This document shows, one piece after another, positions 15,207 to 50,444 of a stretch of DNA of 64,000 nt. Location: NCBI GenBank assembly GCA_964450885.1, contig CAYVFE010000001.1, positions 246,572 to 310,571 on the forward strand. Direction: 5' to 3'. Below the pieces are notes generated by a model. It did no database searches. It saw nothing but the letters and a program-made list of their open reading frames with translations, and had not been told where the DNA came from. The first letter of the stretch is position 1. Each line of letters starts with the position of its first letter. Both the position numbers and the translations under genes were made by a program. The stretch comes from an uncultured Gammaproteobacteria bacterium. Its GTDB lineage: Bacteria > Patescibacteriota > Microgenomatia > Levybacterales > GWA1-39-11.

Positions 15207-16256
15207 ATGAAAAAAGCACTAATTATTTCACTGCTTATTGCGACTATTGGTTTTTTGGGAGCTATCTTGTATATGATTCTTACCCCCGATGGGAATAAGG
15301 TCATAAATCCGCTAGTTGAAGAAGTTGAGCAAGAAGTCTTTCCTCTCAATAAATATTCTTTTGACAATCTTTCACAATCCGAATTTAACGGCAATCAAAT
15401 AGAAATAGGAGAAAAAATTGACGAGGAAATAGACGAAATAGATTTGTACATATTTTATTTTTATGACCAGGATCCACAAGATGCAAATAATTTAAAAAAG
15501 GTCAGCGGACTCTTAACAGTTCCTGCAAAGGAGGGAAATTATCCTGTTATTGTTCAGTTCAGGGGGTATGTAGATAGAGAAATTTATGAAACTGGAATAG
15601 GCACTAGACCTAGTGCTACAGAGTTTGCACGAAATGGATTCATAACACTTTCACCAGATTTTTTGGGATACGGCAAATCTGATATGCCTTCGCAATATCC
15701 TATCGAAGAACGATTTCAAACATACTCAACATCACTATCGCTTTTGGCATCATTGAAGAATTTGAATAAAGCATTTGATAGAAAAGAGGCGTCACAGTCT
15801 GCTGATATTTCAAGACTTGGTCTTTGGGGCCACAGTAATGGTGGACATATAGCTTTATCAGTTTTGGCGGTTACTACAGAAAATATTCCTACGGTTCTTT
15901 GGGCACCCGTGACAAAACCATTTCCGTATTCGATACTGTACTTTACAGATGAATTTGCTGATGAGGGAAAAGCATTGAGAAAAGTTGTATCTGATTTTGA
16001 AAGAGATTATGATGTTTTTGACTTCTCTCCGACTGGTTATTATGGCAGGATGACTGCGTCTTTACAGATACATCAGGGAACAGCGGACGATGCAGTGCCA
16101 CTTGCCTGGACGAATGAGTTCGTAGAAAAGCTAGATGAGCTGGAAATTGAAAATGAATATTTTGTTTATCCTGGTGCGGATCATGATTTGCGCGGCGGGT
16201 GGGATGAAGCGGTGCTAAGAAGCATAGATTTTTATAGGGAAGAACTCGAGCTTTAA
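15207..16256 (+). CDS. Alpha/beta hydrolase (S9 peptidase / dienelactone-hydrolase-like), membrane-anchored
   Basis: N-terminal TM helix. Nucleophile elbow GHSNGG. A C-terminal HQGTADD..P motif and an His-containing DHD near the end. Confidence 0.6.
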   Translation: MKKALIISLLIATIGFLGAILYMILTPDGNKVINPLVEEVEQEVFPLNKYSFDNLSQSEFNGNQIEIGEKIDEEIDEIDLYIFYFYDQDPQDANNLKKVSGLLTVPAKEGNYPVIVQFRGYVDREIYETGIGTRPSATEFARNGFITLSPDFLGYGKSDMPSQYPIEERFQTYSTSLSLLASLKNLNKAFDRKEASQSADISRLGLWGHSNGGHIALSVLAVTTENIPTVLWAPVTKPFPYSILYFTDEFADEGKALRKVVSDFERDYDVFDFSPTGYYGRMTASLQIHQGTADDAVPLAWTNEFVEKLDELEIENEYFVYPGADHDLRGGWDEAVLRSIDFYREELEL

Positions 16257-18022
16257 TAGATATCAAATTTTTCAAGAAGCTTTTTGTTTCCCTCGATCTG
16301 ATAATTTAAAAGCTCTGAGTAGATACCCTTTTTCTTGGAGAGTTCTTGTGGTGTTCCATAGTTTACGACCATTCCGCTATCTATAACGATTATCTTATCG
16401 ACGTTTTGGATAGTCGAGAATCTATGTGCAATTATTATGACAAGTTTTCCTTTCATGAGATTTTCGAGTGCGATTTGTACCTCATTCTCACTTTTTGCGT
16501 CAAGCGAGGAGGTCGCTTCGTCGAGGATTAGAATCGGGGCATTTTTTAGTACAGCTCGTGCTATCTGAATACGCTGTTTTTGTCCTCCGGAAAGCCTAAC
16601 GCCACGTTCGCCTATTTCTGAATCTACTCCCTTTGGGAGTTTTTTTACGAACTCATACGCATTTGCCATTTTGAGTGCTTCTATAATCTCTTTTTCCGAC
16701 GCGTTCTTTTTCCCATACATAACATTTTCCCGGACCGTTGATGAAAAGAGTTCGTTCTCCTGAAATACAAGCGCTATGTTGCTTCTTACAAAATTGTGCG
16801 ACAAGGAAGAATAGGCTTTGTTTTTGATATAGATCTCCCCACCAGTAGGCGTATAGAGTTTCAAGATGAGGTTTACTATCGTAGATTTTCCAGCCCCGCT
16901 GTGTCCTACGAGTGCTACTTTCTCTCCCTGTTTGATCTTAAAGTTAATATCGCTAAGTACTGTTTCAGATTCTTCATAATTGAATGAAATATTCTTAAAC
17001 TCTATATCAGGATCGGAAATTTTATTTGTCGTTTTTGTTTCTCTAAAATTTTCAGTAGATTTTAGATCCATTATCTCGAAATACTCTTTACTTCCTGCCT
17101 CTGCATTTTGAATTTGAGTAAGGATAAATGACATAGCAAATAAGGGCGTTCTGGCCATATTAAAAAGCTGAAGTATAAGAACCATCTCTCCAATCGTAAG
17201 GTTGCCTACGAAGGTATTATAAAAAACAAGAATATTTATGATGAAAAGAATTATTATGAGGGATAGATTCCTAGCAAAGTCGAACTTATGAAAAGTTGAG
17301 CTTTGATGAGCATAGATCTTGTTAATTTTGGATAAGTTAGATGATGTAGTATTGAATTCTGTTTTTTCGCTACTAAAGCCTTTAACCAGGCGTATATTAT
17401 TTATTACTTCATTTATGCGGCCTCTGGTTACATCTTCTATCTTGTTCTTTTTGACTTCTTCCTTGCCCCATTTTACTGTTGAATAATATGAAAGTGTCAG
17501 ATAAACGGGAAAAAGCGCAAACGTGGCAAGTGCTATGGTCGTGTCATAGTAAGCTAGGACTATTATCGTGAATATGCTTTGGAGAAAGGTTGGCAGGATG
17601 AAGTTTGACAATCCATTTAGAAATGAGTAGGTGGTTTGGATGCCGCGATTTAGCTGATTTACGATTTTCCCCGATACTTGTGAGTCGAAGTAGCTTTGTG
17701 GAAGAGTAAGCACCTTTGCGTAGAATTTTTCGGTAAGAAATTTTCTGAGTCTTCCTGCAAAATGATCACCCAGTCTGTTTGATATAGAGGTTATACCTAT
17801 GCCTATAAAGTTTAGCAATAACGAAAGTACAACTAAAAAGATCAAGCGTTCGATGCTGCCATCCTCTCCCTGTACTCTTGCTACTATGTCATCTACTATG
17901 AATTTCGAGATTATTGGCGAAGCAAGCTGAAGCGCAGAAGAGACCAGGATGAGAATAGATATGATTGTTATAAGCCCGTAGAGGGGTTTTGAGATTTTTA
18001 TGATCTTGAATATATTCTTCAC
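16253..18022 (-). CDS. ABC exporter, fused permease/ATPase (MsbA-like)
   Basis: Six N-terminal TM helices. Walker A GHSGAGKST, signature LSGGQKQRIQIARA, Walker B ILILDEATS. Confidence 0.85.
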   Translation of the reverse strand: MKNIFKIIKISKPLYGLITIISILILVSSALQLASPIISKFIVDDIVARVQGEDGSIERLIFLVVLSLLLNFIGIGITSISNRLGDHFAGRLRKFLTEKFYAKVLTLPQSYFDSQVSGKIVNQLNRGIQTTYSFLNGLSNFILPTFLQSIFTIIVLAYYDTTIALATFALFPVYLTLSYYSTVKWGKEEVKKNKIEDVTRGRINEVINNIRLVKGFSSEKTEFNTTSSNLSKINKIYAHQSSTFHKFDFARNLSLIIILFIINILVFYNTFVGNLTIGEMVLILQLFNMARTPLFAMSFILTQIQNAEAGSKEYFEIMDLKSTENFRETKTTNKISDPDIEFKNISFNYEESETVLSDINFKIKQGEKVALVGHSGAGKSTIVNLILKLYTPTGGEIYIKNKAYSSLSHNFVRSNIALVFQENELFSSTVRENVMYGKKNASEKEIIEALKMANAYEFVKKLPKGVDSEIGERGVRLSGGQKQRIQIARAVLKNAPILILDEATSSLDAKSENEVQIALENLMKGKLVIIIAHRFSTIQNVDKIIVIDSGMVVNYGTPQELSKKKGIYSELLNYQIEGNKKLLEKFDIY

Positions 18023-18074
18023 GATTGCTTATTTTAGCACGTAAATAGTCTTATGGAACTCTTTTCTCAGACTG

Positions 18075-18104
18075 TTGTAATTTTTACAATAGTTCGTGTA
18101 TAAT
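18075..18104 (+). promoter_or_regulatory. Candidate sigma70-like promoter (TTGTAA-18nt-TATAAT) driving the structured leader
   Basis: Hexamers read directly from the sequence. Lies in the divergent intergenic region between the ABC exporter and the Rpf-like gene. Confidence 0.3.
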
Positions 18105-18110
18105 TCGATG

Positions 18111-18322
18111 CGATATTAATAAAAGCGATACTTAGCGCTATCTTGAATTGCAAGTATAAGCCGCGGTTTTCCGCCGCGAAAGATAAGTATCCGCAACCCA
18201 GAAGGGTTTTTCCGTTCAGCGGGATTGCTCAAAACCTAACGCCGGGTGTAAAGGAAGGTTCATGTTACCCTCTCAAATCTACGAGAGGATTTTGTACCCC
18301 ACTTACAAGGCTAAAAAGTATT
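18111..18322 (+). ncRNA. Structured 5' leader / candidate cis-regulatory RNA (riboswitch-like) upstream of the secreted cell-wall-hydrolase-like gene
   Basis: About 210 nt of non-coding sequence containing nested hairpins. These are CGCGG-uuuu-CCGCG; AUCCGC enclosing AACCC-agaa-GGGUU-UUUUU and CCG-uuca-GCGG, closed by GCGGAU; and CCUCUC-aaaucuac-GAGAGG. The ORF-track 'N-terminus' here (MNCKYKPRF...) is not protein-like. Confidence 0.4.
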
Positions 18323-19072
18323 ATGGAAAACGAACAAGCTTCGCGAAATTATCGTGGAGAAATAAAACAATTCGTAAAGAACAAGGGGCAAGTAATTGCG
18401 TCTGGAGGGATCCTTGCAGGACTTAGCATTTTCGGTATGTGTGAGGCGTCAAATGCAGATAATTCCAGTGATGATGAGTATCAGGATTTTAGTTCTACGC
18501 AGCTTGTTGAGGAATCATTTGCCCAGGCTGAAAGTTATCAAAGTTTTGTAGATAGGATTATGGAAGAGTCAAAAGAAAATGTAGACCAGATGGAACAGGA
18601 AATGCAAACAGATGAAGAATTCGACCTTGAGACTCCTACCCCAACTGCTACAAGTACGCCAACTCCGACGATGACTCCTACGCTGACACCCACTCCTATT
18701 CCTCCAACTCCAACTCCTGAGCCATATATTCCGACTCCTACCCCAACGCCTGATGTTTCTCCTCAATCACAATCTTCTTCGAATGTGCCTTCTAACTGCC
18801 CAGAATTGATTGCAGATACTTTCGGTTGGAGTGGTTGTGCGATATCATACTGTGAGAGCGGATGGGATCAGAATGAAACAGGTGATGCTGGAGAACGCGG
18901 GTGGTTTCAAATCCACCCTATCCATAGCGATTCAACTTACGATCCTGTAGGAAATGTCGCAGCAGCAAATAGAATAAGCAATGGAGGAACAGATTGGGGT
19001 GCGTGGTCTGTTAGGGGAGTTCTTAGTAATGGTGGATTTTGTCCGAATGGTGAAGCTGTACCATCTCGATAA
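18323..19072 (+). CDS. Secreted transglycosylase-like (Rpf/SLT-like lysozyme fold) protein with Thr/Pro linker
   Basis: Start at MENEQ, followed by a TM/signal segment (IASGGILAGLSIFGMC), a TPTPTATSTPTPTMTPTLTPTPIPPTPTPEPYIPTPTPTP linker, and a C-terminal CESGWDQNETGDAGERGWFQIHPIH segment. That segment resembles the catalytic-Glu / G-[LF]-FQ transglycosylase-like motif. Confidence 0.5.
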   Translation: MENEQASRNYRGEIKQFVKNKGQVIASGGILAGLSIFGMCEASNADNSSDDEYQDFSSTQLVEESFAQAESYQSFVDRIMEESKENVDQMEQEMQTDEEFDLETPTPTATSTPTPTMTPTLTPTPIPPTPTPEPYIPTPTPTPDVSPQSQSSSNVPSNCPELIADTFGWSGCAISYCESGWDQNETGDAGERGWFQIHPIHSDSTYDPVGNVAAANRISNGGTDWGAWSVRGVLSNGGFCPNGEAVPSR

Positions 19073-19094
19073 ATTTTACTATTTCCAATAGTCC

Positions 19095-19700
19095 TTATTC
19101 TGCGCCGATTATTATCACAGCGTCTTCATCGCCATCGTAGTTGGTTGAGGTATCACCGATGGTGTATTCATCCGAAAGATCGCTTTCCAACAATTCGAGT
19201 AGGGCATTATTTCCGTTTGCTACAGAAATTTCTGTCTCCGTGTAGTCAAAATTGTCTGCATTTTCAGTTCCTCCAACGGTGTAGCCTAAATCACCTAGTA
19301 TGTCAGAAAGCCTTCCTGCAGCCCCTGCTGTACCGCTTCCGTTTTGGATAAGTATTGTATATTCTGAGCGATCTATATCAGAATCGCTGTCATCCTCATC
19401 TGTATCAGCATCCTCCTCTGATGCTGAGTCTTCATCTTCTGGTGTTGGCGCAGGGGTATCCGTAGGGGACTGTGTTATCGCGGGTGTTGCAAATATGTCC
19501 TCTTCTTCAGGTTCTTCATCTGAAGAGAATGCGGAGATTGCGACTATAAGAACAATTATTATTATGAGGATTCCTCCGATTATCGCGAAGAGTTTTTTCT
19601 TATTTTTTCTTCCTCCTTGAGATTCATACACATAAGATCTTCTGGAGTGTGCTTGCGGCTGTTGTTCGTCTTCCATAGTCCTTACCTTGCTCAACACCAT
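19095..19700 (-). CDS. Membrane protein with C-terminal LytR_C-like domain
   Basis: A single TM helix (LFAIIGGILIIIIVLIVAI), an acidic low-complexity linker, and C-terminal TILIQNGSGTAGAAGRLSDILGDLGYTV, typical of the LytR_C domain. Confidence 0.5.
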   Translation of the reverse strand: MVLSKVRTMEDEQQPQAHSRRSYVYESQGGRKNKKKLFAIIGGILIIIIVLIVAISAFSSDEEPEEEDIFATPAITQSPTDTPAPTPEDEDSASEEDADTDEDDSDSDIDRSEYTILIQNGSGTAGAAGRLSDILGDLGYTVGGTENADNFDYTETEISVANGNNALLELLESDLSDEYTIGDTSTNYDGDEDAVIIIGAE

Positions 19701-19778
19701 AATACCACTTTTTTCATTAAATTCAAGTTAAATTGAATATTTATAATAGAATTTAATAGCAAATAGTATAATATTTAA

Positions 19779-50373: not shown

Positions 50374-50444
50374 CGGGGTGTAGTTTAAAGGTAGAATGCG
50401 CGGCTGGGGGTCGTGTGGCTGGAGTTCGATTCTCCGCACCCCGA
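50374..50444 (+). tRNA. tRNA-Pro (anticodon GGG)
   Basis: Hand-folded cloverleaf. Acceptor CGGGGUG/CACCCCG. Anticodon stem CGCGG/UCGUG with loop CU-GGG-GG. T-arm UGGAG-UUCGAUU-CUCCG. Discriminator A. No encoded CCA. Confidence 0.7.

Follow-up and report, generated by a model that had tools for sequence, protein, structure and literature searches.

Patescibacteria (CPR) have tiny genomes and few recognisable regulators, and how their genes are controlled is barely known. The 64,000-nt stretch of DNA analyzed here (the window) contains a gene for a putative secreted cell wall hydrolase, and the question raised by this locus is whether the region just upstream of that gene codes for protein or contains an RNA that controls it. 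The intergenic spacer (18023-18322) lies between two divergent genes, an ABC exporter gene on the minus strand (16253-18022) and the gene for a 249-aa protein that begins at 18323. G+C content is 0.53 in the presumed leader (18111-18322, plus strand), compared with 0.30-0.31 in the spacer just 5' of it and 0.16 in a nearby intergenic stretch. A sigma-70-type promoter-like site, TTGTAA (-35) and TATAAT (-10) separated by 18 nt, occupies 18075-18104 on the plus strand. Because this site ends at 18104, transcription is predicted to start near 18110-18112, a few bases 5' of the first helix of the fold described below (P1), in agreement with the 5' end of the region singled out by the original prediction. 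That prediction had described a structured leader of about 210 nt upstream of a secreted gene, and the comparative fold, the promoter, and the in-frame stops reported below support this description.

A protein search returned few relatives. Four distinct homologous leaders were recovered, L001 (P0002), L002 (P0011), L005 (P0003), and L023 (P0144), with the window making five. Further copies were identical to these (L002 = L003 = L004, L005 = L006, and L023 = L024), and L023 was recovered by a second, linker-free profile search. The five distinct leaders come from different sequencing runs or samples and fall into two clades, between which the flanking proteins are just 43-60% identical. At the homologous loci the arrangement is an ABC transporter gene (minus strand), the leader plus hydrolase gene (plus strand), and a LytR_C gene (minus strand). 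L005 lies on a short contig, where only a convergent partial gene, LytR_C-like by alignment, is seen downstream.

These homologs bear directly on whether the region is translated. The list of open reading frames stretched the downstream gene up to a TTG at 18143, which would make the leader an N-terminal coding extension of the hydrolase (peptide MNCKYKPRFSAAK...), and the frame is indeed open for 219 nt 5' of 18323 in the window. In-frame stops, however, break the main-ORF frame in all four homologous leaders (L001, L002, L005, and L023), the first of them 9-108 nt 5' of the ATG and more inside the conserved block, and therefore the open frame in the window is accidental and the leader is not an N-terminal extension. 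Indels of 1, 4, and about 35 nt among the leaders also break the frame, substitutions track base pairing rather than codons, and public gene calls place the protein start at MENEQ (P0001, 249 aa), the residue from which P0002 and P0011 align. We assign negligible probability to a coding extension. The earlier suggestions that the translation of this region is not protein-like and that the real start is MENEQ at 18323 both hold.

Aligning the five leaders revealed a common three-way junction formed by P1, P2, and P3, on which the MAFFT alignment folded with RNAalifold and a manual alignment agree. P1 is a long-range helix in which the 5' strand GCGAUACUUA (18125-18134, plus strand) pairs with UAAGUAU-C-CGC (18184-18194, plus strand), the latter carrying a one-base bulge; 3 of its 10 pairs are changed on both sides. 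P2 is the bulged hairpin CUAUCUUG-AAUUG-CAAGUAUAAG (18138-18160, plus strand), with 4-6 compensatory pairs over the five sequences. P3 is the hairpin CGCGG-UUUUCCG-CCGCG (18162-18178, plus strand), with one compensatory pair (G-C, A-U, or G-U) and a loop in which UUCC (18169-18172) is invariant in all five leaders while the remaining bases vary. The original prediction had named three hairpins in this RNA. Its CGCGG/CCGCG hairpin is P3, and its CCUCUC/GAGAGG hairpin was also recovered, with one compensatory change and a U-tract. The third fared less well: its outer stem AUCCGC/GCGGAU is not conserved and was rejected in favor of the covarying P1, in which AUCCGC serves as the 3' strand. The AACCC-agaa-GGGUU hairpin drawn within that stem falls in a segment missing entirely from L005 and L023.

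Downstream of the junction, the block AACCCAGA (18195-18202, plus strand) is invariant in 5/5 leaders, as is CAACCCAGA (18194-18202), which adds to AACCCAGA the base that ends the 3' strand of P1, C18194. An optional stem-loop follows at 18203-18237 (plus strand), with outer strands GG(G)UUUU/AAAACC and an inner CCG/CGG hairpin. It is found in the window, L001, and L002 and is replaced by three bases (UAC) in L005 and L023; its inner hairpin covaries (CCG/CGG, CCGA/UCGG, and CUAGA/UCUAG). The conserved 3' block AACGCCGGGUGUAAAGGAAGG (18238-18258, plus strand) occurs only once in the window, even when up to 3 mismatches are allowed. Within it, AACGCCGGGUGUAA and GGAA are invariant in all five leaders, the A between them is absent in L002, and the last two bases vary. 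Two further pairings may be drawn between these invariant elements: a candidate 4-bp helix, P4, in which ACCC (18196-18199) would pair with GGGU (18244-18247), and a candidate pseudoknot of 4-6 bp between the P3 loop UUCC (18169-18172) and the tail GGAA (18253-18256). Because the bases of P4 and the pseudoknot never vary, covariation is silent on both.

Folded singly, the window leader is not unusually stable (z = -0.9), and since this value is not significant, the case for a conserved fold is a comparative one. With RNAalifold, the unfitted MAFFT alignment gave z = -5.1 (0/300 shuffles equal) and the manual structural alignment z = -8.0 (0/500 column shuffles equal, SCI 0.83), although the significance from shuffling may be overstated because just five related sequences are involved. 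Counting the optional insert, 13 of 40 pairs in the manual alignment are compensatory. Pairing extends to 96.1% of cells in the model-fitted alignment, where 8 of 26 pairs are compensatory (3 in P1, 4 in P2, and 1 in P3), a level reached by 0/500 shuffles, so the covariation analysis with homologous leaders that had been proposed as a check comes out in favor of P1-P3. When the pairing partners were slid by 1-3 columns, pairing fell to 32-49% with at most 2 compensatory pairs; this control and the unfitted MAFFT result lessen, but do not abolish, the concern over relatedness in the shuffle statistics. Of the 99 shared columns, 58 never vary, and among these are unpaired stretches of 9 and 14 bases. 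Folded individually, all five leaders form P1 and P2, and a hairpin at the position of P3 also appears, offset by at least one base in some. A covariance model scored the five leaders at 104-146 bits and everything else (the window, related loci, and 0.8 Mb of unrelated DNA) at no more than 17 bits. Among its weak matches, two on the minus strand (window 19598-19701 and L001 1534-1649; 14.3 and 11.8 bits, E 0.4-1.4) fall at orthologous LytR_C 5' ends and are probably chance matches repeated by orthology.

Several features place the RNA on the plus strand. The supported helices contain 6 G-U and 0 A-C cells when a window-only pair is excluded. Promoter-like sites lie on this strand 10-20 nt 5' of P1 in the window, in L001 (TTGATT-17-TATACT), and in L023 (TTGAAA-17-TAATAT), and those of L002 (TATAAT) and L005 (TTGAAT-17-TAGTAT) were recognised by eye only. 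The U-tracts also follow on the plus strand; RNAalifold energies are equal on both strands and so do not discriminate between them. An RNA from the minus strand was considered and is disfavored by the G-U versus A-C counts, the promoters, and the U-tracts. As a separate observation, two minus-strand promoter-like sites lie inside the hydrolase gene (window 18514-18585), and these would drive antisense transcription across the leader toward the ABC transporter gene.

Between the conserved fold and the start codon, all five leaders carry a terminator-like hairpin with the conserved 5' strand CCUCUC and a U-tract, 10-100 nt downstream. In the window this is CCUCUC-AAAUCUAC-GAGAGG followed by AUUUUGU (18269-18295, plus strand; hairpin at 18269-18288), with a 6-bp stem of -8.6 kcal/mol. 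The hairpin is weak in the window and in L001 and L002 (-4.4 to -8.6 kcal/mol, U3-4), and those of L005 and L023 have 9-bp stems of -13.9 and -14.6 kcal/mol and U7. Covariation in this hairpin amounts to one pair, C-G to U-A in L001. The U-tract is separated from the ATG by 29 nt in the window, too short a distance to accommodate another promoter, and about 30 nt lie between hairpin and ATG in L001 and L002 as well. No promoter-like site was found between the hairpin and the ATG or within the leader of the window, and because this 29-nt gap lacks a promoter, the hydrolase gene must be transcribed through the hairpin.

How the conserved fold could communicate with this hairpin is less evident from the alignment. 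We found no antiterminator conserved among the leaders, and the terminator strands have a different best upstream partner from one sequence to the next. One candidate antiterminator, in which the tail GGGUGUAAAG would pair with a downstream UUUGUACCC-like element, was attractive by eye and in RNAalifold and was rejected: its duplex energies do not surpass those of shuffled controls in 4/5 leaders, and in L023 the complementarity is marginal (8/300 shuffles). In L023 the conserved 3' tail is sequestered by a 10-bp hairpin, UGUAAAGGAA/UUCCUUUGCA (386-409), after which comes a U-rich run, and a 5-bp version, GGAAA/UUUCC, is present in L002. The L023 hairpin mimics the proposed pairing between the P3 loop (UUCC) and the tail. 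These observations hint that the tail is a mobile strand and that the L023 and L002 hairpins represent an alternative, ligand-free structure.

Two other sequence features of this part of the leader were noted. An SD-like AAGGAAGG ends the conserved tail (window 18250-18264) and is followed 3 nt on by an AUG in the window and L001. In the window this AUG opens a short ORF of 54 aa (18262-18426, plus strand) that overlaps the real start out of frame; its equivalent is 16 aa long in L001, UUG-started and 15 aa long in L002, and absent in L005, and because it is not conserved, the ORF is probably incidental. Just before the start codon, L005 (about 243-282) and L023 (about 520-566) both carry a block of 21 nt, UUACGCCAGGUUAUUCAAAAAG, without a single difference. 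The block sits in a hairpin loop whose stem differs between L005 and L023, and it does not occur in the clade of the window. Part of it, ACGCCAGGU, resembles the aptamer core ACGCCGGGU, and the block might serve as another site of regulation or as a decoy.

The gene downstream (18323-19072, plus strand) encodes a TM/signal anchor, an acidic region, a Pro/Thr linker, and a lysozyme-like (SLT_3, Rpf-related) domain. The anchor agrees with the signal/TM segment that had been predicted after MENEQ. Pfam SLT_3 scores 20.5 bits on the window protein, under its cutoff of 27; the domain is precomputed for most homologs of the protein, and a profile of the window protein matches RpfC structures with E = 0.002. 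By sequence, the product appears to be a membrane-anchored or secreted lysozyme/Rpf-like enzyme. One leader and one N-terminal TM/acidic/Pro-Thr region (47-69% identical) are combined with two different catalytic domains in this family, SLT_3 in the window (18323-19072) and an Rpf-type Transglycosylas domain (PF06737) in L001 (303-1034) and L002 (2320-3024). The catalytic domain has been swapped, and the module in front of it, which provides regulation and export, has stayed constant.

The leader and hydrolase gene together form a cassette of about 1.07 kb (window 18023-19094) that behaves as a presence/absence unit between the ABC and LytR_C genes. Its orientation is opposite to that of the flanking genes in the window, L001, L002, and L023; the upstream flank of L005 is beyond the contig. 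The cassette is absent in relatives whose ABC transporters are 76%, 84%, and 87% identical to that of the window (P0039, P0033, and P0024). In cassette-free relatives, LytR_C and the ABC gene share a strand and are direct neighbors, with LytR_C 48-111 nt on the 5' side (junctions at L017 2889-3001, L018 2950-3001, and L150 2452-2501). The cassette interrupts an ancestral co-transcription of ABC transporter and LytR_C. Its presence in two deep clades and absence from sister lineages imply that it was repeatedly lost or transferred. No flanking repeats were seen around it.

Copies of the leader proved to be rare, with five distinct sequences at one locus, all in Levybacteria. For the organism of the window, the assignment to Candidatus Levybacteria (CPR/Patescibacteria) comes from homologs of its ABC transporter. 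As all five lie at one orthologous locus, the association of leader and hydrolase is inherited rather than repeatedly evolved. No such leader precedes the other SLT_3 homologs that we looked up (P0005, P0009, P0146, and P0149); these leaderless homologs lie in phage-like operons (L007 and L029) and at CPR-like loci with different synteny (L025-L028). Pattern searches gave the same picture. The exact pattern AACGCCGGGTGTAARGRAA had 6 matches in genome_contigs, all without partner motifs, and AACCCAGA-N3-33-ACGCCGGGTGTAA had 3 in metagenome_contigs, also without partner motifs, in a scan that was partly blind because its gap limit of 33 shut out window-type leaders (gap 36-37). Patterns run against viral_contigs gave 4 and at least 120 matches with no partner motifs, and the covariance model reached at most 16.7 bits on viral loci.

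The original prediction had proposed the ydaO (c-di-AMP) class for this leader, with a different or novel cis-regulatory RNA as the fallback. We ran the Rfam scan that it suggested, covering RF00379 and the other families, and obtained no match at the leader. At gathering thresholds, cmscan found no RF00379 in the whole window, where a tRNA gene was the only hit, and nothing in nine related loci. The tRNA gene (50374-50444, plus strand; 52.1 bits) is the sole gathering-level Rfam match in the 64 kb. At E<=10, the 501 nt from 17950 to 18450 gave three chance-level matches and no ydaO, and the four homologous loci gave no ydaO and no match recurring at the leader, with weak ones scattered. No covariance model of Rfam 15 matched the leader, including those of lysM-TM7, M23, and other orphan motifs; the lysM-TM7, lysM-Actino, lysM-Prevotella, and M23 families have been part of Rfam since release 14. 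Crystal structures of ydaO riboswitches have a two-junction, two-pocket fold, and in the leader covariation backs a single three-way junction, to which the optional stem and the candidate 4-bp P4 would be added. Because no ydaO model matches and the fold architecture differs, we conclude that this is not a ydaO riboswitch. The fallback fits the evidence, with a conserved fold that belongs to no Rfam family. Our comparison indicates that the leader is a real, conserved, structured, and untranslated RNA of a family outside Rfam 15.

What such an RNA does can be explained in more than one way. On balance, and with modest confidence, we favor an undescribed 5'-leader RNA family whose members would attenuate transcription in cis, in the manner of a riboswitch, ahead of a gene for a secreted peptidoglycan-cleaving enzyme. 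As expected of a riboswitch, conserved and covarying helices with an aptamer-like arrangement precede the regulated gene in its 5' UTR. Points against this reading are the weak terminator hairpins of the window, L001, and L002, the failure to find a conserved antiterminator, and the restriction of the five copies to a single orthologous locus. The same structure could instead serve as a platform to which a protein or another macromolecule binds in trans, in a PyrR-, TRAP-, or LicT-like manner, with no small molecule involved. Long invariant single-stranded blocks suit protein contacts equally well, no conserved antiterminator was found, the family has a narrow lineage distribution, and the expression platform of L023 has a sub-threshold match to a PyrR site. 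This match, however, is at chance level (24.7 bits against a gathering score of 54, E = 4.4) and occurs in one of five leaders, no regulator is linked to the cassette (its neighbors encode an ABC exporter and a LytR_C protein), and a junction of several helices, to which a peripheral stem is optionally added, is more usual in an aptamer. Autoregulation is unlikely because the downstream product is a secreted enzyme and not an RNA-binding protein. We therefore treat a protein platform as unlikely, although it deserves more weight than the readings that follow. A c-di-AMP riboswitch of the ydaO type that has strongly diverged or been reduced (to a "half" element) is suggested by the gene context of the leader, since genes for Rpf and lytic transglycosylases are among the classic targets of ydaO (PMC9960051; PMC5737381), and by the short strings that it shares with a genuine ydaO sequence (PMC5393176), whose loop-tail pseudoknot has a candidate counterpart here. 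RF00379 is nevertheless absent from all five leaders at the gathering score and at E<=10, there is a single three-way junction, and the shared strings are non-collinear in a likeness judged by eye, which makes this reading quite improbable.

Two further readings were considered. As a constitutive structural 5' UTR it would stabilize the mRNA or act as a fixed attenuator, and the short ORF at 18262 might make it a leader-peptide attenuator. The SD-like AAGGAAGG with an AUG 3 nt on in the window and L001 fits a leader peptide, and a 5' stem can protect an mRNA. The ORF, however, lacks conservation, its length being 54, 16, and 15 aa in the window, L001, and L002, with no equivalent in L005, and a stability element needs neither 58 invariant columns nor a three-way junction; we rate these roles about as low as a diverged ydaO element. 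The region from the promoter to the hairpin and U-tract, about 180 nt, might alternatively be the gene of an independent trans-acting small RNA that merely adjoins the hydrolase gene. Every copy has its own promoter and a terminator-like end, and the terminators of L005 and L023 are strong, but the hydrolase gene needs read-through, with only about 30 nt from hairpin to ATG in the window, L001, and L002 and no promoter-like site there, and leader and gene are gained or lost jointly as one cassette. A separate small RNA gene seems slightly less probable still.

In the riboswitch-type attenuator that we favor, a ligand pocket would be closed by two candidate pairings, P4 and the UUCC/GGAA pseudoknot, with the core blocks CAACCCAGA and AACGCCGGGUG and the UUCC loop as the proposed ligand-responsive sites. 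Occupancy of this compact fold would decide between termination at the hairpin and read-through of RNA polymerase into the hydrolase gene. By analogy with the ydaO leaders of rpf and NlpC/P60 genes, we favor an OFF switch, in which bound ligand would lead to termination. The state of the cell envelope is our most plausible guess for the signal. c-di-AMP is a possible ligand and would need a non-ydaO fold; the 64-kb window contains no DAC motif, an absence that says nothing about a genome measuring at least 588 kb. More tentatively, and somewhat short of what we would call probable, the leader may represent a new riboswitch class confined to Levybacteria that senses a small molecule as a cell-envelope or host-contact signal, either c-di-AMP through a single-junction fold or a novel ligand, and gates a hydrolase carried on a gain-and-loss cassette.

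As a conserved aptamer-like element ahead of a gene for a secreted cell wall hydrolase, the leader would rank among the very few candidate RNA sensors of the CPR radiation. The hydrolase could remodel the cell's own wall or attack that of a host, and the identity of the ligand could reveal the signal that times wall cleavage in these organisms. The leader core measures about 110-145 nt (about 108 nt in L005), and because the RNA is short and well defined, in-line probing is directly feasible.

Compared with known systems, the leader has much in common with riboswitches in general. Its junction covaries, its joining strands are invariant, and one peripheral stem is optional; it lies in the 5' UTR just after a promoter and has a hairpin with a U-tract downstream. 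It differs in having five representatives only and in that no conserved antiterminator pairing was found. One parallel is ydaO. c-di-AMP riboswitches control cell wall hydrolases (PMC9960051), and like them the leader is a long structured 5' element before Rpf/lytic-transglycosylase-type genes that is followed by an intrinsic-terminator-like hairpin. In ydaO a hairpin loop forms a pseudoknot with a purine-rich 3' tail, to which the candidate UUCC-GGAA pairing would correspond; the ydaO tail is GAAGGAG, and the comparable elements here are a GGAAGG tail and the UUCC loop. A ydaO sequence (PMC5393176) also shares short strings with the leader, ACCCA/ACCCG, GGGG(U/C)GAAUC versus CGGGUGUAAA, and CUAAC. 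These strings are non-collinear, however, with those of the leader lying after the P1 3' strand, and they were judged by eye. The architectures also differ: ydaO is pseudo-two-fold symmetric, with two three-helix junctions (seven helices) and two ligand pockets (PMC5393176), whereas the leader has one junction in place of the paired junctions that bind two ligands.

In concept, the leader is nearest to the orphan motifs lysM-TM7, lysM-Actino, lysM-Prevotella, and M23, which lie upstream of peptidoglycan-degrading genes (Weinberg et al. 2017, PMC5737381). A link to c-di-AMP has been suspected for the lysM and M23 motifs from gene context, and binding of c-di-AMP was not seen (PMC5737381). They differ from the leader in sequence and fold, in the genes that they precede (LysM or M23 genes, compared with SLT_3 or Rpf-type genes here), and in host, which is here Levybacteria. 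They resemble it as lineage-restricted candidate cis-regulatory 5'-UTR RNAs, of which lysM-TM7 likewise occurs in a CPR group, TM7, and the leader would join the unsolved orphan RNA motifs upstream of peptidoglycan-degrading genes (PMC5737381).
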